Below, piece by piece: positions 3,933 through 31,590 of a stretch of DNA of 64,000 nucleotides. Position numbers and translations under genes: made by a program. Source of the stretch: an uncultured Bacteroidales bacterium (GTDB lineage Bacteria; Bacteroidota; Bacteroidia; Bacteroidales; UBA10428). The notes under the pieces were generated by a model. The model searched no databases and was not told the DNA's origin. It saw only the letters and a program-made list of their open reading frames with translations. Within the stretch, counting starts at the first letter, position 1. The number at the start of each line of letters is the position of its first letter. The stretch is from positions 9,305 to 73,304 of the forward strand of contig CAYWCR010000005.1 in assembly GCA_964456825.1 (NCBI GenBank), written 5' to 3'.

Positions 3933-6900
3933 TTAATATTCGTCCCAGCTTTTAATGGTTATATCGTCGAGTTTAAGTTTGCAGATGGCCAGCAAAAAAG
4001 CACTGGCCAGTCGCGCATTGGTGATGAGCGGAATGTTATAATCAATGGCACTGCGACGGATCGTATAGTCATTGCTGAGTTCTGATTTGGAAAGATCCTT
4101 GGGTATGTTGATCACAAGATCGATCATCTTGTTTTTGAGATAATCCAGGGTATTGGGCTTTTTATTTTCATCGGGCCAATGTAAAACCGTACAGGAAATG
4201 CCATTCATCTCCAGAAACTGGGCTGTCCCGAGGGTGGCGAAGAGATTGTATCCTTTTTCAGCCAGCGTCCGGCAGCTGTTGACCAGCTCGACTTTTGAGC
4301 GCATTGGTCCGGTAGATAAGAGGATATTTTTTTTCGGATAAGTGTATCCTACCGACAACATGGATTTCAGAATAGCATCGTAAAAAGTTTCACCGATGCA
4401 TCCGACTTCTCCGGTGGACGCCATATCCACACCCAGTACGGGATCAGCTTTTTGCAACCGCGAAAAGGAGAACTGGGGTGCCTTTATTCCGATGCAGTCA
4501 AGATCAAATATTGATTTGTTGGGTTTTTCAACCTGATTCCCCAGCAATATTTGTGTTGCCAGTTCAATGAAATTAACTTTCAATACTTTTGAAACAAAAG
4601 GAAAACTCCGGGAAGCGCGAAGGTTGCATTCAATAACTTTGATGTCATTATCCTTGGCCAGAAACTGGATATTAAAAGGGCCACTGATCTCAAGCGCTTT
4701 GGCTATTTGCCTGGAAATCTTTTTAATCCTCCTCATGGTCTCAAAATAGATCTTTTGCGCCGGAAAAACGATGGTGGCATCTCCGGAATGCACACCGGCA
4801 AATTCGACATGTTCACTGATGGCATAGGCAACCAGTTCGCCTTCCCTGGCAACGGCATCGATCTCAATCTCCTTTGCCTGTTCAATGAATTCGGATACCA
4901 CAACCGGGTATTGCCGCGAGACCCTGGCAGCAATGTTCAGATAGTGTTCCATTTCTTCCTTGTTGGATACCACGTTCATGGCAGCACCGGAAAGCACATA
5001 GGAAGGCCGTATCAATACAGGGAAACCGACCTCATCAACGAAATCATTGATTTCTCTCACGCTGGTAAGCTCTTTCCACCTTGGCTGATCAATTTTTAAA
5101 CGGTCGCACAACAGGGAAAACTTGTGCCGGTCTTCGGCATTGTCAATGGAAACGGGAGAAGTTCCCAGGATATGGACGTTTTGTTTGTGAAGCCTCATGG
5201 CCAGGTTATTGGGTATCTGGCCGCCCATGGAGAGAATAATACCCCTGGGTTGCTCAAGTTCAATTATGTCCATGACCCTTTCAAAAGAAAGCTCGTCAAA
5301 GTACAGCCGGTCGCAAACATCATAGTCGGTGCTCACGGTCTCGGGATTGTAATTGATCATAACCGACTGGTAACCTGCTTTGTTGATAGCATACAAAGCA
5401 TTAACACTGCACCAGTCGAATTCCACACTGCTGCCGATCCGGTAAGCGCCAGATCCTAAAACAATAACAGATTTATTATCAGCAGAATATTCAATGTCAT
5501 TAGAACTTCCGCTGTAAGTCATGTAGAGATAATTGGTTTTGGCCGGGTATTCTGCTGCGAGGGTATCAATTTGCTTGACGCAGGGCAGGAGGTTATGTTT
5601 TTTCCTGTAAGCCCTGACTTCCAACAGTCCGTCCTGCATGGTTTCACTTTCTTGCTTCAACACATACCGGGCAATCTGAAAATCCGAAAAGCCATAAACT
5701 TTTGCTTTTCTCAGCAGCTCCATAGGGGTGTCCTGAAGGGTATTATGCTGTTCGAGCTGATTTTTCAGATTATGGATATTTCTAAGTTTATACAGGAACC
5801 AGGGATCAATTTTTGTCAGTTCATGGATCTTTTCTATGGAATACCCTTTTTCAAAAGCTGCAGCAATCACAAAGATCCGCATATCCGTGGGTTCGGACAA
5901 TTCCTTTTCCAGATCTTCAAACGCAAGATCGCGGTTGCCGACAAAACCATGCATACCCTGGCCGATCATGCGCAATCCTTTTTGTATGGTTTCTTCAAAA
6001 GTACGGCCAATGGCCATTACTTCACCGACACTTTTCATGCTGCTTCCGATCTGTTTTGAAACGCCGATGAATTTATTAAGGTCCCAGCGGGGTATTTTAC
6101 AAACGATATAATCAAGTGCCGGTTCGAAAAATGCCGAGGTAGTTTTGGTAATGGAATTCCTGATTTCATGCAGGCCATAGCCGACTCCTAGTTTAGCCGC
6201 CACAAAGGCCAGCGGATAACCGGTGGCTTTTGATGCCAGGGCACTGGATCTTGAAAGACGTGCATTCACTTCAATAACCCGGTAATCTTCCGAATAAGGA
6301 TCGAGGGCATATTGAATATTGCACTCGCCGACGATGCCGATGTGCCGGATAATTTTAATGGCCAGCTGTCGCAGGTTATGATATTCAGCGTTGGTGAGCG
6401 TCTGCGATGGAGCAACCACAATGCTTTCACCGGTATGAATCCCCAGGGGATCGAAATTCTCCATATTGCATACCGTGATGCAGTTGTCGTAACGGTCGCG
6501 CACCACTTCATATTCAACTTCCTTCCATCCCTTCAGCGATTTTTCAACCAGTATCTGAGGTGCATAAGAGAATGCCTTATCCGCCATACGGCTCAGTTCT
6601 GCTTCATTATTGCAAAAACCGCTGCCCTGGCCGCCCAGTGTATAGGCCGCCCGGATTATTACGGGATATCCCAGTTTTTCTGCTGCCCCGACGGCATCAT
6701 CGCTGCTGGTAACCGCTATGCTTTGTATCGTTTTAACATTTATTTCATTCAGCTTTTTAACGAACAGATCACGGTCTTCCGTATCCATAATGGCCTGAAC
6801 GGGAGTTCCAAGAACCCTTACCTGGTGTTTTGCCAGGATCCCGTTTCGAAACAAATCAATACCGCAGTTTAATGCTGTCTGGCCTCCAAACGATAGCAAT

Positions 6901-7151
6901 ATCCCGTCAGGTTTTTCTTTCTCTATGATTTTTTCAACGAAATAGGGCGTGACCGGGAGGAAATATATCCTGTCTGCAAAGCCTTCAGAGGTTTGAACCG
7001 TTGCAATGTTGGGATTGATAAGGACTGTGTAAATCCCTTCTTCCTTTAACGCCTTTAATGCCTGTGAACCGGAATAGTCAAATTCACCTGCTTCTCCTAT
7101 TTTTAGTGCTCCTGAACCCAGCAGAATTACCTTATGAATTGCATTATCCAT
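3933..7151 (-). CDS. carB: Carbamoyl-phosphate synthase large subunit
   Basis: LGSGALKIGEAGEFDYSG, two ATP-grasp halves (EVNARLSRSSALASKATGYP; ECNLRASRS) and a C-terminal MGS domain; 1072 aa. Confidence 0.98.
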   Translation of the reverse strand: MDNAIHKVILLGSGALKIGEAGEFDYSGSQALKALKEEGIYTVLINPNIATVQTSEGFADRIYFLPVTPYFVEKIIEKEKPDGILLSFGGQTALNCGIDLFRNGILAKHQVRVLGTPVQAIMDTEDRDLFVKKLNEINVKTIQSIAVTSSDDAVGAAEKLGYPVIIRAAYTLGGQGSGFCNNEAELSRMADKAFSYAPQILVEKSLKGWKEVEYEVVRDRYDNCITVCNMENFDPLGIHTGESIVVAPSQTLTNAEYHNLRQLAIKIIRHIGIVGECNIQYALDPYSEDYRVIEVNARLSRSSALASKATGYPLAFVAAKLGVGYGLHEIRNSITKTTSAFFEPALDYIVCKIPRWDLNKFIGVSKQIGSSMKSVGEVMAIGRTFEETIQKGLRMIGQGMHGFVGNRDLAFEDLEKELSEPTDMRIFVIAAAFEKGYSIEKIHELTKIDPWFLYKLRNIHNLKNQLEQHNTLQDTPMELLRKAKVYGFSDFQIARYVLKQESETMQDGLLEVRAYRKKHNLLPCVKQIDTLAAEYPAKTNYLYMTYSGSSNDIEYSADNKSVIVLGSGAYRIGSSVEFDWCSVNALYAINKAGYQSVMINYNPETVSTDYDVCDRLYFDELSFERVMDIIELEQPRGIILSMGGQIPNNLAMRLHKQNVHILGTSPVSIDNAEDRHKFSLLCDRLKIDQPRWKELTSVREINDFVDEVGFPVLIRPSYVLSGAAMNVVSNKEEMEHYLNIAARVSRQYPVVVSEFIEQAKEIEIDAVAREGELVAYAISEHVEFAGVHSGDATIVFPAQKIYFETMRRIKKISRQIAKALEISGPFNIQFLAKDNDIKVIECNLRASRSFPFVSKVLKVNFIELATQILLGNQVEKPNKSIFDLDCIGIKAPQFSFSRLQKADPVLGVDMASTGEVGCIGETFYDAILKSMLSVGYTYPKKNILLSTGPMRSKVELVNSCRTLAEKGYNLFATLGTAQFLEMNGISCTVLHWPDENKKPNTLDYLKNKMIDLVINIPKDLSKSELSNDYTIRRSAIDYNIPLITNARLASAFLLAICKLKLDDITIKSWDEY

Positions 7152-7239: not shown

Positions 7240-7278
7240 TTTGTATACTTTTGCATAATCAATGAATAATTATTCATC
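7240..7278. promoter_or_regulatory. Tandem ARG boxes (ArgR operator) overlapping the argR promoter
   Basis: 18 bp tttGTATACTTTTGCAta + 3 bp atc + 18 bp aaTGAATAATTATTCAtc (perfect TGAAT-N4-ATTCA core). The TACTTTTG -7 element (7246-7253) lies inside box 1. Confidence 0.85.
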
Positions 7279-7281
7279 ATC

Positions 7282-7758
7282 ATGGGAAACAGAACGGAAC
7301 GATTGCTGACCATCCGCAATATCATATCTAGCCGGAAGGTATCAAGCCAGGAAGAATTGCTGAGCCTGTTGGAAGATAAGGGGCTGACCTTTACCCAGGC
7401 AACCCTGTCGAGGGACTTGAAGTTCCTGAAAGTGAATAAAATTTCAGACAGTGAAAAGGGATATATCTATGAATTGCCGGATCAGCATAATGCTCCGGGC
7501 CATGAACTGGCCGAGAGTTATGCCGCAAAGGGTTTTGTTTCCATCAAGTTTGCCAATAAGATGGGTGTGATAAGGACCCTTCCGGGATATGCCCCCAGCA
7601 TAGCCTCGCTTATTGACCAGACCAATCCTTTTGAGATCCTGGGGACCCTGGCCGGAGACGATACCATCTTATTGATCCCCCACGAAAATGTGTCGGAACA
7701 GGATATCATCAATACCCTTGTTCTTATCATACCGGAATTAAAGAATAAATTAAAATAA
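7282..7758 (+). CDS. argR: Arginine repressor
   Basis: SSQEELL, TQATLSRDL winged helix, RTLPGYAPSIA, GTLAGDDTIL. Confidence 0.97.
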   Translation: MGNRTERLLTIRNIISSRKVSSQEELLSLLEDKGLTFTQATLSRDLKFLKVNKISDSEKGYIYELPDQHNAPGHELAESYAAKGFVSIKFANKMGVIRTLPGYAPSIASLIDQTNPFEILGTLAGDDTILLIPHENVSEQDIINTLVLIIPELKNKLK

Positions 7759-7773
7759 CCATACAATCACAGC

Positions 7774-9024
7774 ATGAAGGAAAAGAAGAAAAAGGGGAAA
7801 GTTGTGTTGGCCTACAGCGGAGGCCTTGACACATCCGTAATTCTGAAATGGCTTATTGAAAGAGGATATGAAGTGATAGCCTATGTGGCGGATGTTGGAC
7901 AGGATGATGATTTTGCTGCTGTTGAAAAGAAAGCGCTGAAAGTTGGTGCTGCAAAAGTATACATTAAAAATCTGAGGAAAGAATTTGTTACGGATTATAT
8001 ATTCCCGGCCCTGAAGGCAAATGCCATGTATGAAAACCGGTATTTATTGGGTACTGCCCTGGCCAGGCCATTGATCGCAAAGCATCAGATCAGGATTGCG
8101 GAAATGGAAAGGGCCAATATTGTATCGCATGGTGCCACCGGGAAAGGAAATGATCAGGTTCGTTTTGAACTATCCTATTATGCGCTGAACCCGAAAATTA
8201 AGGTCCTTTCTCCCTGGAAAACCCAGGAGTTTCTGGACCAGTTTAAGGGGAGAACCGATATGCTGAATTATGCAAAGCGTCATAATATTCCTGTTAAAGC
8301 CACGGTCTCCAAACCATACAGCGAAGATGACAACCTTATGCACATCAGTCATGAAGCCGGCATTCTTGAAGACCCAAAATACAAGGCAGAAAAGGAAATG
8401 TTCACCAAGATAGTGGCACCACAGGATGCACCCGACAGGGAAACGCATCTTGAAATCCATTTTAAGGACGGACTGCCCGTTAAGGTAGTAAACCGGAAGG
8501 AAAAAATATCGCAGGACAAGCCACTGCCTTTGTATTTGTACCTGAACAAGGTGGGGGGAGAGAACGGGATCGGATTGCTGGACATGGTAGAAAACAGGTT
8601 TGTCGGCATTAAATCCAGGGGTGTCTATGAAACGCCAGCCGGAACCATTCTGTTAAAGGCCCACATGGATATTGAGGGCATAGCCATGGACCGTGAAGTA
8701 ATGCGGTTAAGGAACATGCTTTCGCCGGTTTTTTCAGAACTGGTTTACAATGGTTTCTGGTTCAGTCCCGAAATGGATTTTCTGCGGGCGGCCATTGACA
8801 AAAGCCAGGAAATTATCGATGGCATTGTATACCTGACCCTGTACAAGGGAAATGTTATCATTGACGGGAGAGAATCTCCGAGTTCGCTTTATGACAAGGA
8901 ATTATCGAGTATGGATATCGAGGGCGGATTTGACCAGAAGGACAGTTCGGGATTCATCAAGATCAATGCCATACGGCTGATGGCGCATAATGCAATACTC
9001 AGAAAAAAGGGTAAATCACGCTAG
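7774..9024 (+). CDS. argG: Argininosuccinate synthase
   Basis: [50 protein letters not shown]. Confidence 0.98.
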
Positions 9025-9095
9025 GTTATTGCCGGAATACTTAATTGGAATAAGGGGATGGAGAATGGCATTCCCCTGAATAATAATGGGCTGTA

Positions 9096-10439
9096 ATGAA
9101 GCTTTGGGAAAAGGGAATAAAAACGGATCAATGGGTGGAAAGGTTCACCGTTGGAAAGGACCGGGACATGGACCGGATCCTGGCCCCATATGATGTGCTG
9201 GGATCGCTGGCGCATGCCGCCATGCTAAAACAAACCGGAATCCTGCCTGAAACTGAGTTTCAGGCAATCCGTATTGCATTGACAGCGCTCTATAAGGACA
9301 TTGGCAGGAAAGGCTTTGAAATCGAGGAAGGCATTGAAGATGTTCATTCCCAGGTTGAACTGCTGTTGACGCGGAAACTGGGTGAAGCCGGCAAGCATAT
9401 TCATACAGCCAGGTCAAGAAATGACCAGGTGCTGCTCGACATTAAACTATACATAAGGGATGAGATTCGCCAGGTATCTGAAATAGCGGGCAAATTTTTT
9501 CACAGCCTGCAGCAGCGAAGTGAGGAAACGAAAGAAATATTGCTGCCGGGGTATACCCATTTGCAGGTGGCCATGCCTTCTTCCTTCGGCCTCTGGTTTG
9601 GCGCTTATGCAGAAAGCCTGGTGGATGATATGCAGCTGCTGCTGGCCGCGTACCGCATTGTTAATCAAAATCCGCTTGGTTCTGCTGCGGGTTACGGATC
9701 TTCCTTCCCGATCAACCGGCAGCTCACAACAGACCTGCTTGGATTTGACGCCATGAATTACAATGCTGTCTATGCACAGATGGGCAGGGGAAAAGTTGAA
9801 AAAATTGTGGCATTTGCATTGGCTTCCTTTGCTTCGACATTGTCCAAACTGGCCAGCGATGTCTGTCTTTATGCCAGTCAGAATTTCGGCTTTTTCAGAT
9901 TACCCGATGCCTACACCACGGGGTCAAGCATCATGCCGCATAAAAAGAATCCGGATGTATTCGAACTGATACGGGCCAGGTGCAATAAAATTCAAAGCCT
10001 GCCGAACGAGATCGGATTCCTTGTTAATAATCTGCCTTCAGGCTATTTCCGGGACCTTCAGGTTATCAAAGAATCCTTCCTTCCGGCATTCGATGAACTA
10101 AAAAGCTGTATTGCCATGGCTGATCTGATCACAGGCAAACTGGAAGTTAACCGGCATAGTACAGAAGGGGAATTGTATCAGTATTTATTCAGCGTTGAAG
10201 AAGTGAACAAATTGGTAGACAGCGGTGTTCCTTTCAGGGATGCATACCGGAAAATTGCCCAGGACATCAAAACCGGAAATTATCATCCGGAAAGGATGGT
10301 AAGGCATTCCCATGAAGGCAGCATCGGGAATCTTTGCAATGATAAAATAGCGTTGCGCATGAAAAGGATCTTACAGGAATTCAACTTCCGGAAAACAGAT
10401 ATAGCCATTAAAGCATTGCTGCAATATGGAAAAAAGTAA
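9096..10439 (+). CDS. argH: Argininosuccinate lyase
   Basis: HTARSRNDQV, LPGYTHLQVAMP, GSSIMPHKKNPD signature. Confidence 0.97.
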   Translation: MKLWEKGIKTDQWVERFTVGKDRDMDRILAPYDVLGSLAHAAMLKQTGILPETEFQAIRIALTALYKDIGRKGFEIEEGIEDVHSQVELLLTRKLGEAGKHIHTARSRNDQVLLDIKLYIRDEIRQVSEIAGKFFHSLQQRSEETKEILLPGYTHLQVAMPSSFGLWFGAYAESLVDDMQLLLAAYRIVNQNPLGSAAGYGSSFPINRQLTTDLLGFDAMNYNAVYAQMGRGKVEKIVAFALASFASTLSKLASDVCLYASQNFGFFRLPDAYTTGSSIMPHKKNPDVFELIRARCNKIQSLPNEIGFLVNNLPSGYFRDLQVIKESFLPAFDELKSCIAMADLITGKLEVNRHSTEGELYQYLFSVEEVNKLVDSGVPFRDAYRKIAQDIKTGNYHPERMVRHSHEGSIGNLCNDKIALRMKRILQEFNFRKTDIAIKALLQYGKK

Positions 10440-11118
10440 ACGTCAGTTCCGTATCGTAGTGCGGATTGAAATGGCCACCCTCATCAACCGGGACGGAAAA
10501 ATAAACCGGAAGAAAATGGACCGGCTCGCCATGGTATTATCGAACCTGAACAATAGCGGAAAACAAATTATGGTGGTTACTTCCGGCGCTATTGTGCTGG
10601 GCTCAGAGAAACTCAATCTTTCATCCATGCCCGGCTCAAAATTGGATATGCAGGCCACGGCAGCCGTTGGCCAGGTTGAACTCATCCGGTCATATCAGCG
10701 ATTTTTTGATGAGTATGGTCAGATAGTAGCCCAGGTGCTGGTTACAAGCGATATTGTTGAATATCCATCCCGCATTGAAAACACCCGCAACACATTTGAT
10801 ATGCTGTTGTCTATGAACATTATACCCATTGTCAATGAAAATGACCCTGTTTCAACTACGGATATTGAGCTGGATGATAATTACCCCCTGGCCCTGAAAG
10901 TTGCCAATATCGCAAGGGCTGATTTCATTGTCATAAAGTCAGCGACCAACGGTTATTATTGTATTGTTCAGGGCAATGGCAAGCCGGCTGTTGAGGTTGA
11001 AAATGAAATAACGCTTCAGGAGAAAATAGAAGAATTATGTAAGGGCATTACCCCGGCCCGGTTGGATTCATCCGGTATCGTATTCCCTGTGTCGATGGAA
11101 GAAATCTGTCCCCGTTAA
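10426..11118 (+). CDS. Degenerate glutamate 5-kinase paralogue (probable pseudokinase, ProB*)
   Basis: Colinear with the adjacent ProB over about 164 aa (VTSGAI, AAVGQ, NEND kept). VVKIGTS is VVRIEMA, GDND is DDNY, and the SDIDG and TGGM.TK motifs are absent. Confidence 0.85.
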   Translation: MEKSKRQFRIVVRIEMATLINRDGKINRKKMDRLAMVLSNLNNSGKQIMVVTSGAIVLGSEKLNLSSMPGSKLDMQATAAVGQVELIRSYQRFFDEYGQIVAQVLVTSDIVEYPSRIENTRNTFDMLLSMNIIPIVNENDPVSTTDIELDDNYPLALKVANIARADFIVIKSATNGYYCIVQGNGKPAVEVENEITLQEKIEELCKGITPARLDSSGIVFPVSMEEICPR

Positions 11119-11129
11119 CGACTGGTGTT

Positions 11130-11948
11130 ATGGAATTCAGAAAAATACTGAGAAATAAAAAAAGGATCGTTGTTAAAATAGGCACATCCACGTTGTCCTT
11201 CGAGAATGGAAGGATAAACTTTCATCGCCTTGAAAAGCTGGCGGATGTATTAAGCACTTTGCGCAAAAAGGGAATTCAGGTTGTGCTGGTCACATCAGGG
11301 GCTATCGGTGTTGGTGCAGCCAGAATCGGAATGACACAGAAGCCCAGGGAACTGAACCTGAAACAGGCATTGGCAGCTATTGGCCAGGCCGAGCTTATGA
11401 AAATGTACCAGAAATTTTTTGAAGAACATAATCAGCTGGTAGCGCAGGTTTTGTTAACCAAGGATGTGGTCACCATTCACCGGCGCAACCAGCATGCCAG
11501 GAGAACCCTTGACCGTTTGCTCGATATGGGGATCATCCCTATCATCAACGAGAATGATACCATTGCCACCTATGAAATTGAATTTGGCGATAATGATTCC
11601 TTGTCGGCCATCGTAGCAACGCTGATTGAAGCTGATTTGCTGGTCATCCTCTCGGATATTGACGGATTGTATTCAGCAGACCCCAGGATGGAAACTTCTG
11701 CCGAGATTATCCATTCGGTATTTGAGATTACACCTGAGCTTGAGCAATTGGCTTCGGGTGCAGGCAGTTCCTTCAGCACGGGCGGGATGGTTACCAAAAT
11801 CGCCGCGGCCAAAATGTGCATGCAGGCAGGACTGGATTGCATTATCACCAATGGATCAGAACCTGCGGTAATTTTTGACATACTGGAAGGCAAAAAGGTC
11901 GGTACCCACTTTGTTGCCGGCCAGCAACATATTATTAACCATGCATGA
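11130..11948 (+). CDS. proB: Glutamate 5-kinase (short form, no PUA domain)
   Basis: IVVKIGTSTL, VTSGAI, INENDT, EFGDNDSL, SDIDGL, TGGMVTK. Confidence 0.97.
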   Translation: MEFRKILRNKKRIVVKIGTSTLSFENGRINFHRLEKLADVLSTLRKKGIQVVLVTSGAIGVGAARIGMTQKPRELNLKQALAAIGQAELMKMYQKFFEEHNQLVAQVLLTKDVVTIHRRNQHARRTLDRLLDMGIIPIINENDTIATYEIEFGDNDSLSAIVATLIEADLLVILSDIDGLYSADPRMETSAEIIHSVFEITPELEQLASGAGSSFSTGGMVTKIAAAKMCMQAGLDCIITNGSEPAVIFDILEGKKVGTHFVAGQQHIINHA

Positions 11949-13206
11949 TCAGTCTATGAAATCAGGGATACTGGAAAAGGGAAAAAATGTTAAGAAGGCT
12001 TCCCGGATACTGGCTGTTGCCAATACGGCCCTTAAGGATAAAGCCCTGCTATTGATCGCGGAAGAAATTGAAAAGAACCGCGAAGCCATCAGGTCAGCCA
12101 ACAGCAAGGACCTCCGGGCCGGTGTGAAAAAAGGCCTTTCGGCTGCCTTTATCGACAGGCTCACCCTGGATGACAAACGCATTGACGGCATGGTTAAAAT
12201 ATTGCATGATGTGGTCAACCTGAAGGACCCTGTTGGTGAGATTTTCAATATGAATACCATGCCTAACGGATTAAAGGTCGGCCAGATGCGGGTTCCCATC
12301 GGTGTGATCGGCATTATCTTTGAATCCCGTCCGAATGTTTGCATAGAAGTGGCCTCACTGACGGTAAAATCAGGTAACGCAGCGCTTTTAAAAGGAGGAT
12401 CAGATGCCATTCATTCCAACATCTGCCTTACCCGCATAATTAAAAAGGGTTTGTTGAATGCAGGTTTGCCGGAAAGTTGTATCGAGATCATTGATAATAC
12501 AAGCCGGGAATCGGTGCTGGAAATGGTTAAAATGAAGGAATATATTGATGTTATCATTCCCAGGGGAGGACTTCAGTTGATACGCTTTGTGGAAGAAAAT
12601 TCGGTAATACCCGTCATCCGGCATGATCAGGGAATATGCCATACCTATGTTGACGAGTTTGCCAGCCTGCAGATGGCCTTGAGTATTTGCCTCAATGCCA
12701 AAGCCCAGCGTCCGGGCGTATGCAATGCCATGGAGACCTTGCTGGTGCATTCGGAAATTGCCCCGGTTTTTTTACCCATGATGGAGAAGGAATATAAAAA
12801 GGCAGGCGTAAAATTAAAGGGATGCAACAAAACAAAAATGATCCTGCCGGATATTCAGGACGCAACGGAAGAGGACTGGAAGACAGAATACCTCGACCTG
12901 ATCCTGGCTGTTAAAATAGTGGACAGCCTTGAGGAGGCCGTTGCCCATATTAATGAATACAGCTCGCATCATTCGGATTCCATTGTAACGGATCATTATG
13001 GCCAGGGCATGCGGTTTATAACCGAAGTCGATTCGGCAGCCTGTTTCATTAATGCTTCCACCCGCTTCAGCGACGGGAATGAATTCGGCCTCGGAGCAGA
13101 AATGGGCATCAGCAATCAAAAACTACATGTTCGGGGGCCTATGGGTCTGAAAGACCTTACGGCTCCGAAATATATTATTTTCGGTAATGGACAGATAAGA
13201 GTTTAG
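11941..13206 (+). CDS. proA: Gamma-glutamyl phosphate reductase
   Basis: VPIGVIGIIFESRPNV, KGGSDA, CNAMETLLVH, NASTRFSDGNEFGLGAEMGIS. Start at 11941 (or 11956) overlaps the proB stop. Confidence 0.97.
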   Translation: MHDQSMKSGILEKGKNVKKASRILAVANTALKDKALLLIAEEIEKNREAIRSANSKDLRAGVKKGLSAAFIDRLTLDDKRIDGMVKILHDVVNLKDPVGEIFNMNTMPNGLKVGQMRVPIGVIGIIFESRPNVCIEVASLTVKSGNAALLKGGSDAIHSNICLTRIIKKGLLNAGLPESCIEIIDNTSRESVLEMVKMKEYIDVIIPRGGLQLIRFVEENSVIPVIRHDQGICHTYVDEFASLQMALSICLNAKAQRPGVCNAMETLLVHSEIAPVFLPMMEKEYKKAGVKLKGCNKTKMILPDIQDATEEDWKTEYLDLILAVKIVDSLEEAVAHINEYSSHHSDSIVTDHYGQGMRFITEVDSAACFINASTRFSDGNEFGLGAEMGISNQKLHVRGPMGLKDLTAPKYIIFGNGQIRV

Positions 13207-13233
13207 GAGTATTTACCTTAAAAACTAAGCATT

Positions 13234-14577
13234 ATGAATGATATCCTGCAAAAACTGGAGACCTTAACCATCAAGGCTTCCGAGATTGACAAGGGACTCT
13301 TTGAAAAATTTAACGTAAAACGCGGACTTCGCAATCCGGACGGAACAGGAGTTCTTGTCGGCCTTACCAACATCGGCGATGTTGTGGGATATGAAAAACA
13401 GGGAGATAAAATAATACCCTGTGACGGCCGCCTTTTTTACCGGGGAATTGAAATTACCGAACTGGTGAATGGTTTTCAGAAAGATCACCGGCATGGATTT
13501 GATGAATCGGTATATTTATTGCTGACCGGAAGTCTGCCAAGCAAAGAAAACCTTGACATGTTTTCATCCTATCTGGTCGGCCATCGTGACCTGCCGAACA
13601 GCTTCGTTAACCTGATCCTTTCCTTCCGGGGGAAGAATATCATGAATATGCTGGCACGGTCTGTCCTGGTTATGTATACCATGGATGACGATGTAGAAAA
13701 TTACTCCCATATCAACCTGCTGAAGCAATCCCTTACCCTGATCGCCAAGTTCCCGATCATTGCCTCTTATATCTTTTTTAGCTTCAGGCATACCTATCAG
13801 CGGAAATCATTAATATTCAGGCATCCGGATCCGGCCCTCAGCACCGCTGAGAACTTCCTGTACATGCTGAAAGGTGAGGGATATTCCAGGCTGGAGGCAG
13901 ATATCCTTGATCTTTCGCTGGTGCTGCACGCTGAGCACGGAGGTGGTAACAATTCAACCTTTGCAACCCGCGTAATCAGTTCAGCCGGCACGGATACCTA
14001 TTCTGCCATTGCAGCCGGCCTCGGATCCCTGAAAGGCTATCTCCATGGCGGTGCGAACCTTCAGGTGGAAGAAATGATGCGGGATATCAAGAAAAATGTA
14101 AAGGACTGGAATAACCAGGAAGAGATCCTTGACTACCTGATAAAAATATTGCAGGGACAAGCCGGAGACGGTTCAGGCAAGATATATGGCATTGGGCATG
14201 CCATCTATACATTGTCTGATCCGCGCGCTATTTTACTAAAGGAAAAGGCAAAGGAACTGGCTGAATCCAAGGGAAAACTGGATGAGTACAATCTTTACGA
14301 AAGTGTTGAAAAACTCGCACCCGAAGCTTTTGCACGGTTCAAGGGTGATAATGCGAAGGTTGTCAGCGCCAATGTTGACTTCTACTCGGGATTTGTATAC
14401 AAATGCATCGATATTCCCAAGGAGTTGTTCACCCCTATTTTTGCCGTGGCCAGAATGGCTGGCTGGTGTGCTCACCGGCTTGAAGAGGTTACCTTTTCTT
14501 CTCGGCGCATCATTCGTCCGGCCTATCGCAATGTTTTTGGCAGGGTGGATTATGAAGATCTGGAAGAAAGAGCATAA
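13234..14577 (+). CDS. gltA: Citrate synthase (citrate/2-methylcitrate synthase family)
   Basis: LHAEHGGGNNST, LHGGAN, YGIGHAIY..SDPRA, ANVDFYSG, ARMAGWCAH. Confidence 0.93.
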   Translation: MNDILQKLETLTIKASEIDKGLFEKFNVKRGLRNPDGTGVLVGLTNIGDVVGYEKQGDKIIPCDGRLFYRGIEITELVNGFQKDHRHGFDESVYLLLTGSLPSKENLDMFSSYLVGHRDLPNSFVNLILSFRGKNIMNMLARSVLVMYTMDDDVENYSHINLLKQSLTLIAKFPIIASYIFFSFRHTYQRKSLIFRHPDPALSTAENFLYMLKGEGYSRLEADILDLSLVLHAEHGGGNNSTFATRVISSAGTDTYSAIAAGLGSLKGYLHGGANLQVEEMMRDIKKNVKDWNNQEEILDYLIKILQGQAGDGSGKIYGIGHAIYTLSDPRAILLKEKAKELAESKGKLDEYNLYESVEKLAPEAFARFKGDNAKVVSANVDFYSGFVYKCIDIPKELFTPIFAVARMAGWCAHRLEEVTFSSRRIIRPAYRNVFGRVDYEDLEERA

Positions 14578-14590
14578 TTTTTATTAGTCA

Positions 14591-14605
14591 CCCTATAAAA
14601 TAGGG
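14591..14605. terminator. Short hairpin after gltA (possible weak terminator)
   Basis: CCCTAT-AAA-ATAGGG in AT-rich flanks; only 6 bp and no contiguous U-tract. Confidence 0.3.
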
Positions 14606-14716: not shown

Positions 14717-14776
14717 GAATGGTATCATTATAAATTCAGGCAAAAGCCATTCTCATTACCCGGGAATGGCTTTTTT
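14714..14776 (+). terminator. Attenuator: mutually exclusive antiterminator and intrinsic terminator
   Basis: TGAGAATGG (14714-14722) pairs with CCATTCTCA (14747-14755). Alternatively AAAAGCCATTC (14742-14752) pairs with GAATGGCTTTT (14764-14774), with a U6 tract at 14771-14776. Confidence 0.75.
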
Positions 14777-14803
14777 GATTGGGTTAAGAAAAAATAATGA
14801 TTT

Positions 14804-17800
14804 ATGATAAGCAGGAGATTGCCAAAGGCACAGGGGCTGTATGATCCCTCAGAGGAAAAAGACAGTTGCGGTATCGGCTTCGTTGCGCATATCAAAGGGA
14901 TCAAGTCACATGAAATTATCAGCAGGGGAATAGAAGTCCTGGAGAATATGTCACACCGTGGTGCGGAAAGTGCTGATAATGTGACCGGCGACGGAGCCGG
15001 AATATTAATGCAGATTCCGCATAAATTGATCTTATCCAGGGGCATCAACGTTCCGGATGAGGGCAGTTACGGAACAGGTCTGGTTTTTTTGCCCAGGGGA
15101 CAGGATGAAAGGGAACAATGCGAAAAGATACTGACCGGGATCCTTGTGGCGGAGGGACTTGATGTAATACATTTTCAGGATGTCCAGGTCGATAATTCAG
15201 TGCTCGGGGAAATATCCAGCAGTTCTGAACCCTTCATCCGACAGATATATGTTACCGGAAATCATGAGCAGGATGAAATGGAAAGAAGGCTCTACATCTC
15301 CCGGAAAATGGCTGAAAACACGATCAGAAGTTCGGCCCTGAAAGATAGGGAAGCCTTTTATATTCCCAGCCTGTCAACCAAGGTTCTCATCTACAAGGGA
15401 TTGTTCACATCCCTTCAACTGGCGCAATATTTCACCGATCTGAAAAATCCCGCCATGGAAAGCGCTATTGCCATGATTCATTCGCGGTTCAGTACCAACA
15501 CTTTCCCGACATGGGATCTGGCACAGCCCTTCAGGTTTCTCTCCCACAATGGCGAGATCAATACCATCAGCAGCAACCGCATGTGGATGAATGCCCGCGA
15601 ATCGCTCATGAAAACTGAACTGTTCGGGGAAGACCTGAAGAAATTGTTCCCGGTCATAGAGCCCGGCAAAAGTGATTCGGCCTCGCTGGACAATGCGCTG
15701 GAGTTTCTGGTGCTGACGGGGAAATCATTGCCGCATGCCCTCAGCATGCTGATCCCGGAATCGTGGAATGACAAAAACCCTATTCCTGACAGCCTTAAGG
15801 CGTTTTATGAATACCACTCTACCATCATGGAGCCCTGGGACGGGCCTGCCTCGATAGTGTTCAGCGACGGACGGTATATCGGGGGTACCCTGGACAGGAA
15901 TGGACTGCGTCCCTCACGCTATATCATCACCAAAGACGACATGATCGTTATGGGGTCGGAGGTCGGCGTGCAAATCTTTCCTCCGGAGAAAATCCGTGAG
16001 AAAGGCCGGCTCATGCCGGGAAAGATTCTCCTGGTGGATACAAAATTCGGCATCATTGTGCCTGACGATGAGTTAAAAAGGCAGCTGACGGGACGGAATC
16101 CTTATGGCAACTGGCTGAAGGAAAACCGGATTGATCTGAATGATATTGTGGTAAAAGAAAGGATTCCCACCAGTCTCGGTGACCGGTTTGACCAATACCT
16201 GAGGGTATTCGGATATACAAAGGAAGATATTGATATTGTCATGAAACCCATGGCCAGGGAAGGGCAGGAACCCGTCAATTCCATGGGAAATGATACACCC
16301 CTTGCTGTCATGTCGGATAAGCCGCAACGCCTGTTCAGCTATTTCCGGCAGCATTTTGCCCAGGTTACCAATCCGCCTGTCGATCCCATTCGTGAAGGGC
16401 TGGTCATGTCGCTGACCAATTATATCGGATCGGTTTCCCGAAACTTGCTTATCGAATCCCCTGCCCATTGCAAACTGATTAAGTTCCGAAGTCCCATTGT
16501 CACCAATACGGATCTGGGGAAAATAAAAAACCTCGACCAGGGCCAGTTCTCCCATGAGGTCATTCCTATTCTGTTCCCTGCCACCGGCCATAATCCAGGA
16601 AAAGCCCTTGAAAAAGCCCTGGATGAGATTTGCCGGAAAGCTGAAAAGGCAGTGGACAACGGGCGCAATTTTATTGTCCTCTCCGACAGGGATATGAATG
16701 AAAAAATGGTGCCCATACCCTCCATCCTGGCTGTTTCTGCCGTTCATCACCACCTGATTGCAGTCAAAAAAAGAATGCAGATTGGTTTGATACTGGAATC
16801 TGCTGAACCCAGGGAAGTGAACCACTTTGCTTTGTTGTTCGCTTACGGGGCCAGTATTGTCAATCCATACGGAGCATTTTCCATCCTGGAGAAATATTGC
16901 GAGAGCGGCGATATTCAGCACGATTATGTGAAAGCCCGGGAGAATTATATCAAGGCAATAGACAAGGGATTGCTGAAAGTTATGTCTAAAATGGGCATTT
17001 CCACCCTCAGGAGTTATCTGGGATCACAGATTTTTGAGGCCATCGGAATTTCAACCGGTGTGATCAACCGGTATTTTACCGGGACCGACTCAAGGATTGA
17101 AGGCATCGGCCTGGAAGAAATAGCCAAAGAAGCCATGATGCCGCATCAGCACGCTTTTGAAAAAAATAGTCTGGAAGCAGAGAGTCTGCACAGTGAAGGC
17201 GTATATCATTACCGGACAGGCGGGGAGTATCATGCCTGGAATCCGGATACCATCGGATTGCTGCAGTGGTCAACACATACCAATGACTATGCAAAATACA
17301 GGGAATTCAGCGCTCAGGTCGATGCTGAAAACCGACGTCCTCATTTTATACGGGGCTGTGTGAATATCAAAAAGGGGAAATCAGTTCCCATTGAGGAAGT
17401 TGAACCGGTTGAATCCATCATGAAACGTTTCGTCACCGGCGCCATGTCGTATGGTTCCATCAGCAAGGAAGCCCATGAAGCCATGGCAATTGCCATGAAC
17501 TCCATTGGAGGAAGAAGCAACACCGGTGAAGGAGGGGAGGATTCAGAACGGTTTAAACCAAGAGAGGACGGTACCTTTGCCCGCAGCGCCATCAAACAGG
17601 TGGCTTCCGGGCGTTTTGGTGTCACAGCCCATTATCTTGTCAATGCCGATGAGCTTCAGATCAAGGTTGCCCAGGGGGCCAAGCCGGGAGAAGGGGGTCA
17701 GCTGCCGGGATATAAAATTGACAGGATCATTGCAAAATTAAGGCATTCCACACCCGGAATAACCCTTATCTCACCACCTCCGCATCATGATATCTATTCC

Positions 17801-19348
17801 ATAGAGGACCTGGCACAGCTTATTTTTGATCTTAAATGCACCAATCCGGGCGCCCGCATCAGTGTCAAACTGGTCTCGGAAAAAGGTGTCGGCACCATTG
17901 CGGCCGGAGTTGCCAAGGCGCATGCTGACGGCATTACCATCAGCGGATGCGAGGGAGGAACCGGGGCAAGTCCGCTCAGTTCCATTAAACATGCAGGATT
18001 GCCTATGGAATTGGGCATCTCGGAAGTGCAGCAGACCCTGGTGATGAACAACCTGCGTGACCGGGTCAGGCTGCAAACAGACGGACAGCTGAAAACCGGC
18101 CGGGATGTTATTTATGCCGGATTGCTGGGAGCGGAAGAATTCGGATTCGCTACAGCCGCCCTGATCGTTCTGGGTTGCATCATGATGCGAAAATGCCATC
18201 TCAACACCTGTCCGGTAGGCGTGGCAACGCAGAATCCGGAACTTCGCAAGCGGTTTCTGGGAAAATCAGCCTACCTGGTCAATTATTTCCGGTTTGTTGC
18301 CCAGGAGGTAAGGGAAATGCTCGCGGAAATGGGATTTCGTTCCTTCGATGAAATCGTTGGCCGGACCGACATGCTGGAACAGCGTAAGGATATATCGCAC
18401 TGGAAGGCAAGCAAAATAGACCTGTCCAGGATCCTTTTCCGCCCGAAAGAGGCTGACAACCATGCAACCCGATGCATATGCCTGCAGCAGCACAAAATTG
18501 AGGAGGTCATGGATCATGAACTCATAGCGCTTTCCAACAAGGCCATCAAGAATCAGGAAAAGGTCTGGATTTCCAGGGATATCACCAATACTGACCGCAC
18601 TGTCGGGGCCATGCTGTCCGGTGAAATAACCCGCATATATGGCGAAGCTGCCCTTCCCGACAGCACCATAATATGCAAATTCAAAGGCTCAGCCGGACAA
18701 TCCTTTGGCGCATTTCTGGTAAAAGGTATTCAGTTTGAAATGGAAGGTGATACCAATGATTATCTGGGCAAAGGATTATCCGGAGGCCGGATCATTGTGG
18801 TTCCACCCAAAGGATCCACCTTCAGGCCGGAAGAAAACATAATAGTCGGCAATACCATTCTGTATGGCGCTACAAGTGGTGAAGCTTATATCAGGGGCGT
18901 CGCAGGCGGCCGGTTCTGTGTGAGAAACAGCGGTGCCATTGCGGTTGTTGAAGGGGTCGGCGATCATGGCTGCGAATACATGACCGGCGGCAGGGTTGTG
19001 GTGCTGGGTAAGACCGGCAGGAATTTCGCAGCTGGCATGAGTGGCGGTATTGCATACATACTGGATAAGGAGGGCAATTTTGATTATTTCTGCAATAAAG
19101 GCATGGTTGAGTTATCTCCGGTTGGTGATAAGGATGACCTTATGGAATTGCAGCAGATGATCAGTAACCATTATCTCTATTCACGAAGTGAACTTGCAGA
19201 AAGGATACTGGTGAACTGGAACGAATACCTGCCCAAATTCATCAAAGTGATACCGCTGGAATATAAGAAAGTGCTTGAAGAACAAAAAATATCCCAGCTG
19301 CTTGAAAAAATCAAACAGACGGAAGACGAACCGCATTTTCACTATTAG
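14804..19348 (+). CDS. gltB: Glutamate synthase large subunit
   Basis: DSCGIGF (Ntn Cys), HSRFSTNT, EPWDGPA, KVAQGAKPGEGGQL, CIMMRKCHLNTCPVGVATQ, GXGXG C-terminal repeats. Confidence 0.98.
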   Translation: MISRRLPKAQGLYDPSEEKDSCGIGFVAHIKGIKSHEIISRGIEVLENMSHRGAESADNVTGDGAGILMQIPHKLILSRGINVPDEGSYGTGLVFLPRGQDEREQCEKILTGILVAEGLDVIHFQDVQVDNSVLGEISSSSEPFIRQIYVTGNHEQDEMERRLYISRKMAENTIRSSALKDREAFYIPSLSTKVLIYKGLFTSLQLAQYFTDLKNPAMESAIAMIHSRFSTNTFPTWDLAQPFRFLSHNGEINTISSNRMWMNARESLMKTELFGEDLKKLFPVIEPGKSDSASLDNALEFLVLTGKSLPHALSMLIPESWNDKNPIPDSLKAFYEYHSTIMEPWDGPASIVFSDGRYIGGTLDRNGLRPSRYIITKDDMIVMGSEVGVQIFPPEKIREKGRLMPGKILLVDTKFGIIVPDDELKRQLTGRNPYGNWLKENRIDLNDIVVKERIPTSLGDRFDQYLRVFGYTKEDIDIVMKPMAREGQEPVNSMGNDTPLAVMSDKPQRLFSYFRQHFAQVTNPPVDPIREGLVMSLTNYIGSVSRNLLIESPAHCKLIKFRSPIVTNTDLGKIKNLDQGQFSHEVIPILFPATGHNPGKALEKALDEICRKAEKAVDNGRNFIVLSDRDMNEKMVPIPSILAVSAVHHHLIAVKKRMQIGLILESAEPREVNHFALLFAYGASIVNPYGAFSILEKYCESGDIQHDYVKARENYIKAIDKGLLKVMSKMGISTLRSYLGSQIFEAIGISTGVINRYFTGTDSRIEGIGLEEIAKEAMMPHQHAFEKNSLEAESLHSEGVYHYRTGGEYHAWNPDTIGLLQWSTHTNDYAKYREFSAQVDAENRRPHFIRGCVNIKKGKSVPIEEVEPVESIMKRFVTGAMSYGSISKEAHEAMAIAMNSIGGRSNTGEGGEDSERFKPREDGTFARSAIKQVASGRFGVTAHYLVNADELQIKVAQGAKPGEGGQLPGYKIDRIIAKLRHSTPGITLISPPPHHDIYSIEDLAQLIFDLKCTNPGARISVKLVSEKGVGTIAAGVAKAHADGITISGCEGGTGASPLSSIKHAGLPMELGISEVQQTLVMNNLRDRVRLQTDGQLKTGRDVIYAGLLGAEEFGFATAALIVLGCIMMRKCHLNTCPVGVATQNPELRKRFLGKSAYLVNYFRFVAQEVREMLAEMGFRSFDEIVGRTDMLEQRKDISHWKASKIDLSRILFRPKEADNHATRCICLQQHKIEEVMDHELIALSNKAIKNQEKVWISRDITNTDRTVGAMLSGEITRIYGEAALPDSTIICKFKGSAGQSFGAFLVKGIQFEMEGDTNDYLGKGLSGGRIIVVPPKGSTFRPEENIIVGNTILYGATSGEAYIRGVAGGRFCVRNSGAIAVVEGVGDHGCEYMTGGRVVVLGKTGRNFAAGMSGGIAYILDKEGNFDYFCNKGMVELSPVGDKDDLMELQQMISNHYLYSRSELAERILVNWNEYLPKFIKVIPLEYKKVLEEQKISQLLEKIKQTEDEPHFHY

Positions 19349-19383
19349 GATCAATCCAAGCTAACCATTAACATAACACGGAT

Positions 19384-20805
19384 ATGGGAAACCCAAAAGG
19401 ATTTATGCTGATACCCAGAAAGGCGGCAGGATATCGCCCCCTCAATGAACGCATTGATGACTTTGGTGAAGTTGAGCAAACGCTGAATGAACAGGACAGG
19501 AAAGATCAGGCTTCCCGTTGCATGGACTGCGGAGTACCCTTTTGTCAGTGGGGATGCCCAGTCATGAATAATATGCCGGAATGGCAGGATGCCATTTATC
19601 GCGGTAACTGGAAAGAGGCTGTTGATCTGCTTCATATTACCAATAATTTTCCTGAATTCACCGGACGTATCTGTCCGGCCCCCTGCGAAAACGCCTGCAC
19701 CCTTAATATTCACGAAGAACCGGTTACCATTCGTGAGAATGAAGCCGCAGTAGCCGAAAAAGGATTCGAACTGGGCTATATTGTACCCAGGCCGCCCCTG
19801 GTAAGAACCGGCAAAAAGGTGGCTGTGGTCGGATCGGGTCCTTCGGGACTGGCATGCGCTGATTTGTTAAACCAGTGGGGCCATACGGTTACGGTTTTCG
19901 AGAAAGATGAGGCTCCGGGCGGATTGCTCAGGTTTGGCATTCCCGATTTCAAACTGAACAAGAAAGTAATTGACCGCCGTCTTGAGGTGCTGCAGCAGGA
20001 AGGCCTTCATTTTAAGACCAACACCCTCGTAGGGTATGATGTTAAGGGAACAGACATGCTGAAGGAATTTGATGCCGTATGCCTTACCATTGGAGCCATG
20101 AAGCCGCGGGATCTGCAGGCCGAAGGCAGAGAGCTGACCGGAATTCATTTTGCCATGGATTTTCTGACTCAGCAGAATAAAGTAAACCGGGGCATGCATA
20201 TCGGCGAAGCTGAGCGGATAACAGCAGCCGGCAAAAATGTCGTGGTCATTGGTGGCGGAGATACCGGCTCAGACTGCGTGGGGACATCAATACGCCAGGG
20301 GGCAAAAAGCATCACCCAGATAGAGATACTGCCCAAACCACCGGCACGGCGCAATCCGGATAACCCATGGCCTTTCTGGGCAAATGTTCTGCGGTATTCA
20401 AGCTCGCATGACGAAGGATGCGACCGGAAATGGAGCCTTTCAACCAAAAGATTTACCGGAGAAAATGGCAGGGTAAGAAAAATAGAAATGGCGGAGGTAG
20501 ACTGGGTAAAGTCAGCGGGAAAATTTACCATGATGGAAAAGCCAAACACGGATAAGGTGATGGATGCTGAACTTGTTTTGCTTGCCATGGGTTTTGTTCA
20601 TTGCATGCATGAAGGAATTGTCAGGGAGCTGGAACTGGAACTCGATGTAAGAGGCAACATAAAAATAAATCCGGGCTTTCAAACCAGCCAGCAGAAGGTT
20701 TTTGCCGCAGGTGATTCGGTAACGGGAGCGAGCCTGGTTGTCAGGGCCATTTTCCAGGGCAGAAACCTTGCCAAGGCTGTCAATACTTTCCTGAATGCTC
20801 CGTAG
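19384..20805 (+). CDS. gltD: Glutamate synthase small subunit
   Basis: RCMDCGVPFC, NNFPEFTGRICPAPCE, GSGPSGLA, GGGDTGSDC, VFAAGD. Confidence 0.97.
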   Translation: MGNPKGFMLIPRKAAGYRPLNERIDDFGEVEQTLNEQDRKDQASRCMDCGVPFCQWGCPVMNNMPEWQDAIYRGNWKEAVDLLHITNNFPEFTGRICPAPCENACTLNIHEEPVTIRENEAAVAEKGFELGYIVPRPPLVRTGKKVAVVGSGPSGLACADLLNQWGHTVTVFEKDEAPGGLLRFGIPDFKLNKKVIDRRLEVLQQEGLHFKTNTLVGYDVKGTDMLKEFDAVCLTIGAMKPRDLQAEGRELTGIHFAMDFLTQQNKVNRGMHIGEAERITAAGKNVVVIGGGDTGSDCVGTSIRQGAKSITQIEILPKPPARRNPDNPWPFWANVLRYSSSHDEGCDRKWSLSTKRFTGENGRVRKIEMAEVDWVKSAGKFTMMEKPNTDKVMDAELVLLAMGFVHCMHEGIVRELELELDVRGNIKINPGFQTSQQKVFAAGDSVTGASLVVRAIFQGRNLAKAVNTFLNAP

Positions 20806-30513: not shown

Positions 30514-31590
30514 TTATTCTTTCTTTTGCCTGGAGATCATTTCAATAAACTGATCGAATAAATATTCAGTATCGGTGGGTCCGCTTGAGGCTTCCGGATG
30601 AAACTGGGTGGAGAAAAATGGTTTTGACCTGTGGCGCATGCCTTCGTTGGTATTATCATTAAGATTAATGAATGAGGGTTCCCAATCCGGGGGAAGGGTA
30701 TCATTGTTGATGGCAAAACCATGATTCTGCGAGGTAATGTAGGCTTTATGGGTATCTTTAAGTATGACAGGTTGATTATGACTGCGGTGTCCGTATTTCA
30801 ACTTATAGGTATCGGCGCCTGCTGCAAGGGCAAGCAATTGATTGCCAAGGCAGATTCCATATATAGGGGTATCACCGGACAGTACCTTCTGAAGATTCCG
30901 TATGGTGGCCTTGCATTCCTTTGGATCTCCCGGTCCGTTGGAAATAAACAAACCGTCATAGGCTTCTGTGGTAAAATCATAGTCCCAGGGCACAACCACT
31001 ACGGTAGTATCCCGTTTCAGGAGGTTCCGGATAATATTGTATTTGACACCGCAATCCACCAGCAAAATCCGGTATTTTCCATTCCCATATACCTTTTTCT
31101 CCTGAATGCTGACCTGCTGAACCAGGTTATCCTTATTGGGGTCGTAGAACTCGATATTTTCTTCGTTATAAACAATCTTACCCAGCATGGTCCCCTGTTC
31201 CCTCAGGATTTTTGTTATGGCTCGTGTGTCAACGCCGAATAGTCCCGGAATTTTATATTCTTTTAGCCATTCTCCGAGGCTTTTATTCGAATTCCAGTGG
31301 CTGTAATCATCGGTATAATCGGAAATAACAAGTCCGGTTATATGAAGTGCATAGGATTCAAAAAACTTAAGCATATCATCTTCGCGCACATTGTCGGGGA
31401 CGCCGTAATTCCCGATTATCGGATAGGTCAGCGTCAATATCTGCCCTTTATAGGAAGGATCGGTAAGGCTTTCAGGGTAACCCGTCATGGCCGTGTTAAA
31501 GACAACCTCACCGGAAACCGAACGCCCGTAGCCGAATGAACTGCCTTCAAATACTTTTCCATCTTCGAGTACAAGCTTAATAGCATTCAT
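30514..31590 (-). CDS. carA: Carbamoyl-phosphate synthase small subunit
   Basis: GEVVFNTAMTGY.ESLTDPSY, SNGPGDP, GICLGNQ, QNHGFA, QFHPEA. Confidence 0.97.
   Translation of the reverse strand: MNAIKLVLEDGKVFEGSSFGYGRSVSGEVVFNTAMTGYPESLTDPSYKGQILTLTYPIIGNYGVPDNVREDDMLKFFESYALHITGLVISDYTDDYSHWNSNKSLGEWLKEYKIPGLFGVDTRAITKILREQGTMLGKIVYNEENIEFYDPNKDNLVQQVSIQEKKVYGNGKYRILLVDCGVKYNIIRNLLKRDTTVVVVPWDYDFTTEAYDGLFISNGPGDPKECKATIRNLQKVLSGDTPIYGICLGNQLLALAAGADTYKLKYGHRSHNQPVILKDTHKAYITSQNHGFAINNDTLPPDWEPSFINLNDNTNEGMRHRSKPFFSTQFHPEASSGPTDTEYLFDQFIEMISRQKKE

Follow-up and report, generated by a model that had tools for sequence, protein, structure and literature searches.

A 64,000-nt stretch of DNA from an uncultured Bacteroidales bacterium (GTDB lineage UBA10428; assembly GCA_964456825.1, contig CAYWCR010000005.1, positions 9,305 to 73,304 of the forward strand), referred to below as the window, carries a seven-gene operon in which genes of arginine and proline synthesis stand together in the order argR-argG-argH-proB*-proB-proA-gltA. 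Gene families in the window and in the genome holding it (G000) were scored with NCBIfam and Pfam models. The operon is considered here as a candidate part of an arginine pathway without N-acylated intermediates, which would lead from glutamate through ProB, ProA, ornithine aminotransferase (OAT) and ornithine carbamoyltransferase (OTC) to ArgG and ArgH.

The operon, its operator and a degenerate kinase

All seven genes lie on the plus strand. The first, argR (7282-7758), encodes an arginine repressor with both Arg_repressor domains (PF01316 and PF02863; TIGR01529, 124 bits) and a ratio of non-synonymous to synonymous substitutions (dN/dS) of ~0.04. It is followed by argG (7774-9024; PRK00509, 543 bits), encoding an argininosuccinate synthase of the canonical type, and by argH (9096-10439; TIGR00838, 328 bits), encoding argininosuccinate lyase. 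The next two genes are proB* (10426-11118), a degenerate paralogue of the glutamate 5-kinase gene, and proB itself (11130-11948; TIGR01027, 313 bits), whose product of 272 aa is a glutamate 5-kinase without the PUA domain. The unit is completed by proA (11941-13206; PRK00197, 592 bits), encoding glutamate-5-semialdehyde dehydrogenase, and by gltA (13234-14577; PRK14032, 628 bits), encoding citrate synthase. Two stop/start overlaps couple argH to proB* (14 nt) and proB to proA (8 nt); proA starts with the ATG at 11941, which lies within ATGCATGA and overlaps the stop of proB. All seven open reading frames (ORFs), their families and the gaps of 15, 71, -14, 11, -8 and 27 nt agree with the original prediction, made from the letters of the window, when checked against the sequence. 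The dN/dS values show strong purifying selection on every gene of the operon.

Upstream of argR, and divergent from it as had been predicted, lies carB, the gene for the large subunit of carbamoyl-phosphate synthase (3933-7151, minus strand; TIGR01369, 1546 bits). The carB-argR spacer is 130 nt long and has at its argR end a tandem ARG operator (7242-7276, plus strand) composed of box A (7242-7255) and box B (7263-7276), the latter a perfect palindrome. The boxes are 14 nt long each and 21 nt apart from start to start, and box B stops 5 nt short of the argR ATG. The consensus of the ARG box in the operators of enterobacterial ArgR and Bacillus AhrC is TGAAT-(A/T)4-ATTCA. Those operators comprise two imperfect palindromes 21 nt apart, directly before the first gene, and the site described here follows the same plan, its spacing and conservation having been measured; it differs in being predicted from sequence and in that one tandem site was found genome-wide. 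In nine of ten orthologous promoters, both boxes recur at this spacing. A position weight matrix built from the boxes recognised this operator as the sole tandem pair in the 4.4-Mb genome (score of at least 8), and the box B consensus has two perfect matches in the whole genome.

The tandem boxes, together with an ArgR that has DNA-binding and arginine-binding domains, support a predicted autoregulated control of the unit by ArgR, which probably extends to carB. Arginine-dependent repression would be expected from the operator and the ArgR domains. Control of the proBA operon by ArgR, as put forward in the original prediction, is backed by the conservation of the operator.

The proB* product (230 aa) retains the N-lobe only. 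It matches positions 2-172 of the 363-position proB profile with 159.5 bits, under the cut-off of 186, and is 39% identical to ProB over ~225 aa of the N-lobe. With the numbering of E. coli ProB transferred via a PDB alignment, all nine ProB* orthologues have Glu in place of Gly12 and Tyr in place of Asp150, and the nucleotide-binding C-lobe is missing from each; Lys10 is replaced by Arg in most of the nine and is Lys in the others. The C-lobe has given way to a tail of ~50 residues with an invariant Phe-Pro. Judged by the catalytic residues and the C-lobe, ProB* does not belong to the glutamate 5-kinases; in ProB, the catalytic Lys and Gly, the D-N-D motif and the Lys of the C-lobe are invariant in 12 orthologues. 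The dN/dS of proB* is 0.075-0.088, similar to that of argH and proA, so the gene encodes a maintained pseudoenzyme and is not a relic.

Co-folding of ProB with ProB* gave an interface score (ipSAE) of 0.80, compared with 0.13 for the best of three controls; of 80 solved complexes, 58 reach the mark applied, as do 2 of 110 mismatched pairs, counts that are a rough guide here since own alignments were used. At least 96% of the contacts agree between runs, and the pLDDT of the partner is at least 83. The interface is formed by residues 65-147 of ProB and 62-144 of ProB*, which we take to be the N-lobe dimer interface of amino-acid kinases. Solved structures of glutamate 5-kinase homodimers exist, and the high score of the pair may reflect mere likeness to them. 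The model lends support to binding between the two proteins; ProB* is probably a non-catalytic partner of ProB, and may be supposed to regulate the first step, which both syntheses share.

The unit likely ends immediately 3' of gltA, at a small hairpin followed by a T-rich tail (14591-14605, plus strand). The original prediction saw no U-tailed terminator in the operon, which holds from argR to proA, where no convincing plus-strand terminator was found. The glutamate synthase (GOGAT) genes gltB and gltD (14804-20805, plus strand; PRK11750, 1770 bits, and TIGR01317, 609 bits) do lie directly downstream, as described before. Since a strong U-tailed hairpin (~14743-14781) separates gltA from gltB, gltBD is a conserved neighbour and not evidently part of the same transcript; simple co-transcription is improbable. 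Overlooked earlier was carA, encoding the small subunit of carbamoyl-phosphate synthase (30532-31578, or G000:C5:39836-40882, minus strand; TIGR01368, 463 bits), which is also within the window, 23 kb from carB. None of argB, argC, argJ, argE, argF and proC is in the window, as had been noted.

Arginine genes in the genome and in related genomes

The genome, which is 97.3% complete and consists of 207 contigs, was searched with curated models. Neither the kinase nor the reductase of an acyl- or LysW-protected ornithine pathway was found in it, and ArgJ, ArgE and any acyl-ornithine carbamoyltransferase were likewise not found; the original prediction had named a complete acetylated pathway in another part of the genome as the result that would speak against its proposal, and no such pathway came to light. 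For the ArgB/LysZ kinase, the best matches to TIGR00761 (34.5 and 33 bits) are carbamate kinase and ProB. For the ArgC/LysY reductase, the best match reaches 36 bits and is probably asd. No argJ was found in the genome by the model search, and no ArgE above the cut-off (best match 75 bits, cut-off 298). Apart from OTC, pyrB is the only carbamoyltransferase gene of the genome, and the acyltransferase (ArgA or a GNAT protein) lay outside the genome-wide search. The second carbamoyltransferase gene, located on contig C27, was considered as a possible ArgF' and rejected, being pyrB accompanied by pyrI. A LysW-type pathway was rejected as well: its kinase and reductase would match the argB and argC models, and no homologue of either is present.

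The enzymes required by a non-acylated route are all encoded: ProB and ProA, both intact and over the curated cut-offs, a true OAT, a canonical OTC, CarAB, ArgG and ArgH. The OAT gene is on contig C14 and scores 688 bits with TIGR01885 (cut-off 378); with the argD model it reaches 376 bits, below the cut-off of 410, which identifies the product as a true ornithine delta-aminotransferase and not ArgD. The OTC gene is on contig C3 (PRK04284, 557 bits; TIGR00658, 433 bits). Both enzymes had been named in the original prediction as ones to be sought outside the window, as had a second proBA or a proC. The operon copies of proB and proA are the only ones in the genome, and proC is on contig C7, beside cysE and cysK. 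Since no arginine deiminase, acyl route or arginase was found in the genome, OAT is the only encoded source of ornithine or citrulline. Two side observations concern these loci. A long perfect GC-rich inverted repeat is present in the 340-nt region upstream of OTC (G000:C3, ~57440-57480; L010), and a stand-alone carbamate kinase gene adjoins a PorZ-like gene of the type IX secretion system (T9SS), in a genome without arginine deiminase.

With a completeness of 97.3% and 207 contigs, the acyl genes could in principle sit in the unassembled 3% of the genome, an explanation that is extremely unlikely. The argC model was matched over its cut-off in none of the 24 genomes of the genus, and neither argB nor argC was found in the one-contig genome G169 of the same family or in four other carriers of the operon from four families (G012, G033, G117 and G119); the absence of the acyl genes is therefore not an assembly gap. 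Moreover, the counterpart of this operon in relatives contains the acyl genes, and the operon is assembled here in full. Several genomes of the genus, this one not included, show a full-length weak match to the ArgC model (55-67 bits, model positions 1-325) in proteins of ~320-370 aa that are semialdehyde-dehydrogenase-like, for example at G012:C18:29955-30911 and G003:C8:32617-33573.

In addition, a sample of 151 genomes from the order, each with a completeness of 90% or more, was searched for argC, OAT, argH, proA, OTC and an arginine-deiminase-like protein. Both argC and argH are present in 41 genomes, among which OAT was found in 14, OTC in 11 and proA in 35. Another 22 genomes (~15% of the sample) have argH without argC, and in this group all 22 carry OAT, 21 OTC and 16 proA. 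The remaining large group, 83 genomes with neither argC nor argH, contains OAT in 76 cases, OTC in 77 and proA in none. Raw OAT presence was accordingly rejected as a marker of the route. The 83 genomes without argC, argH and proA presumably belong to arginine auxotrophs that make proline from ornithine, and OAT and OTC most likely serve there to form proline from ornithine and/or to break down citrulline.

The subsets with proA provide the informative contrast, because all of them have proBA and do not need OAT for proline. OAT is present in 16/16 proA-containing genomes without argC (OAT and OTC together in 15/16) as compared with 10/36 of those with argC (OAT and OTC together in 4/36). The Fisher test gives p ~1e-8, a value that is overstated since the genomes are kin; the 16 genomes without argC come from 13 families. 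Among all genomes without argC, proA occurs only alongside argH (16/22 versus 0/83). By coordinates, OAT is not linked to the operon in any genome that has argH without argC.

Conservation and ancestry of the operon

The gene-neighbourhood survey envisaged in the original prediction showed that the operon recurs across at least five GTDB families of Bacteroidales. The block carB<>argR-argG-argH-proB*-proB-proA-gltA-gltB (type I) was found at loci L013 to L017 and in genomes G012, G169, G033, G069, G117 (without gltA) and G119, with identity of ArgH and ProB* down to 45-58%. The divergence of carB and argR is kept in all related loci; of the nine related type I loci reaching beyond proA, eight have gltA as the next gene, and gltB comes next in related loci. 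Genomes G063 and G098 have argH-proB-proA without proB*. More generally, ten argC-lacking genomes, representing eight GTDB families, have argH and proA separated by 1.0-1.9 kb, and adjacency of argH-proB-proA is confirmed in these eight families.

A second arrangement (type II), also found in argC-lacking Bacteroidales, is composed of argG, proC, a gene for an M20 ArgE-like protein, argH, proB and proA (L018:547-6553; L056 (G145):941-7491), its argG being of the sequence type of the acyl-pathway relatives. The M20 ArgE-like deacylase gene is kept there without ArgB and ArgC. A further locus, from a metagenome-assembled genome of a horse-faeces Bacteroidales, encodes a 513-aa fusion of an N-terminal ProC half with a C-terminal ProB half, with proA as the next gene (L019:4485-6026).

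The type II arrangement bears on a possible switch of substrate, by which the PUA-less ProB and ProA would act on N-acyl-glutamate in place of ArgB and ArgC, and an unrecognised acyltransferase and deacylase would complete a cryptic acylated pathway. The M20 ArgE-like gene, and perhaps a GNAT-like one, next to argG, proC, argH, proB and proA would fit such a scheme. For the genome studied here it is very unlikely: there is neither an ArgE above the cut-off nor an acyl-ornithine carbamoyltransferase, the OTC is of the canonical ornithine type, and ProB and ProA reach 313 and 592 bits on equivalog models, ProB with an invariant D-N-D motif. In E. coli glutamate 5-kinase this motif binds the free amino group.

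Relatives that possess the acyl pathway reveal the background of the operon. In G053, there is one super-operon, carB<>argR-(229 aa)-argG-argC-argD-(198 aa)-proC-proB-proA-acyl-ornithine carbamoyltransferase-argB-ArgE-like-argH-gltA; up to argH, the gene order in G118 is identical except for one extra ORF, and gltA is missing there. Compared with this Bacteroidota super-operon of the N-succinyl-glutamate pathway, the operon in the window keeps the frame carB<>argR ... argG ... proB-proA ... argH-gltA and lacks the genes for the GNAT protein, argC, argD, argF', argB, argE and proC; a canonical OTC replaces ArgF', and ProB is without the PUA domain (272 aa here, 360 aa in the super-operon relatives). 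A proB duplicate has been added. The identity with the super-operon versions is 24% for ArgG, 39% for ProA, 60% for ArgH and 74% for CarB.

Since the acyl-pathway relatives already hold proC-proB-proA in the arginine super-operon, the presence of proline genes in the arginine operon is ancestral in the order. The original prediction described ProBA as taken up instead of the acetyl-ornithine genes; this does not agree with G053 and G118, in which proBA (and in G053 also gltA) stand beside a full acyl pathway. The operon in the window is best read as a remodelled arginine-proline super-operon minus every gene of the acyl branch, and not as a fresh recruitment of ProBA. As judged from the sequences compared, the change exceeds deletion: argG and proBA belong to another sequence type, the PUA domain is lost and proB is duplicated.

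A candidate non-acylated route to arginine

ProB and ProA make glutamate-5-semialdehyde, and an ornithine aminotransferase can turn this semialdehyde into ornithine. In the proposed pathway, ProB and ProA would reduce glutamate to the semialdehyde, the unlinked OAT of contig C14 would transaminate its open-chain form to ornithine, the unlinked canonical OTC of contig C3 would draw ornithine to citrulline with carbamoyl phosphate from CarAB, and ArgG and ArgH, which are useless without a supply of citrulline, would complete arginine. The same pool of semialdehyde and 1-pyrroline-5-carboxylate (P5C) would supply proline via ProC, while gltA could provide carbon toward 2-oxoglutarate and glutamate. 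The putatively ArgR-repressed operon would then serve both ends of the non-acylated pathway. We infer that OAT and OTC run this way; their operation in this reverse direction has precedent, having been demonstrated in Staphylococcus aureus (PMC3510247) and in mammalian mitochondria (PMC11876448). On the gene content described above, we regard the use of this route in the lineage as reasonably probable.

The main competing explanation is salvage. The lineage would have lost de novo ornithine synthesis, and OTC, ArgG and ArgH would turn imported ornithine or citrulline into arginine; ProBA would serve proline only and be under ArgR by history, and OAT would degrade surplus ornithine or top up proline. 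Several observations weigh against the non-acylated route, and most of them favour salvage. The ancestral super-operon already includes proC-proB-proA, so the linkage of these genes to argGH and their control by ArgR can be understood even if ProBA do not feed arginine. OAT and OTC are each found in ~92% of the genomes of the order without argC and argH (76/83 and 77/83), that is, in relatives resembling arginine auxotrophs; because they are common whatever the state of argGH, their presence alone is weak evidence, and their most frequent function in the order must be another one, such as making proline from ornithine or, for OTC, catabolism. In this genome no tandem ARG pair precedes OAT, OTC, proC or arcC, which have only weak single boxes (9.6-14.5 bits). 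A stand-alone carbamate kinase gene is present (G000:C69:12076-12978; L012:6999-8072, minus strand; 343 bits, just under the equivalog cut-off), and in G033, G117 and G119 the carbamate kinase gene adjoins OTC, which directly follows it. Six of the 22 genomes with argH and without argC show no proA, which is also in line with salvage. Two further points are of a general nature: cyclisation of the semialdehyde to P5C works against the OAT step toward ornithine, and kinship among the compared genomes inflates the independence of the counts.

Other results speak against salvage, which we consider rather unlikely as a whole. With proline already supplied by ProBA, OAT should be equally dispensable in proBA genomes with and without the acyl route, whereas it is kept in all 16 without the route and in 10 of 36 with it. 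The different sequence type of argG and proBA and the duplication of proB look like remodelling and not simple decay, and the operon genes are under strong purifying selection. A cell with ProBA, OAT and OTC together could also hardly avoid some flux to ornithine. The unacetylated ProBA route of the original prediction is partly supported: each genomic check that it named turned out in its favour, and it gains from the absence of the acyl pathway and the presence of OAT and OTC, and loses from the ancestral linkage and from the wide occurrence of OAT and OTC and their lack of an ARG operator.

As for regulation, relative G033 has strong ARG boxes before OAT (18.7 and 19.3 bits) and a 21-nt-spaced pair before OTC. 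Of nine relatives, it alone has such strong boxes before both, so OAT and OTC do not generally belong to the ArgR regulon, and the regulon evidence for the non-acylated route is partial.

In textbook accounts of prokaryotic arginine synthesis, the amino group of glutamate is protected by an acetyl, succinyl or LysW group, which blocks the cyclisation of the semialdehyde. The succinylated pathway was assigned by GapMind to 69 of 106 Bacteroidetes genomes, with gaps in the rest (PMC7311316); this work of 2020 and its 2026 update describe acylated routes only, the update adding no OAT route. A literature search found no account of ProBA-OAT as the sole arginine pathway of a bacterium, an earlier mention being possible.

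Two known systems are close to the proposed route. In mammalian mitochondria, ornithine and then citrulline are made from glutamate by P5C synthase (P5CS), OAT and OTC (PMC11876448). The proposed route shares with the mammalian one (P5CS, OAT, OTC, ASS1, ASL) the same five chemical steps, homologous enzymes and the absence of N-protection. It differs in having separate ProB and ProA instead of the fused P5CS, in the predicted co-transcription of their genes with argG and argH under an ArgR operator, and in the extra dead kinase subunit. In S. aureus, arginine is formed through RocD, the OTC of the arc operon (ArcB1) and ArgGH, as proven by mutants and 13C nuclear magnetic resonance (PMC3510247). 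The RocD-type OAT and the OTC feeding ArgGH are common to both cases. Unlike the bacterium studied here, S. aureus starts from proline via PutA, keeps silent argJBCDF genes and is under CcpA control, whereas here P5C and the semialdehyde would come from glutamate via ProBA, there is no acyl pathway and ArgR is the predicted regulator. The chemistry is already known from mammals and S. aureus.

Beyond this genome, it may be supposed, tentatively and with considerable doubt, that a substantial number of free-living Bacteroidales have ProBA-OAT-OTC-ArgGH as their only route to arginine, and that ProB*-ProB heteromers retune feedback so that one semialdehyde pool serves both proline and arginine. 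In that case, bacteria would possess in this arrangement an equivalent of the ornithine-sensitive P5CS isoform found in the mammalian gut.

If the proposed route operates, N-protection would not be obligatory in bacteria, and the sole arginine route of this lineage would be that of mammalian enterocytes and of a derepressed S. aureus mutant. Auxotrophy predictors built on the acylated pathways would then wrongly score such genomes as arginine-dependent. The conserved pseudokinase gains a testable role, and the operon illustrates the remodelling of an arginine-proline super-operon.

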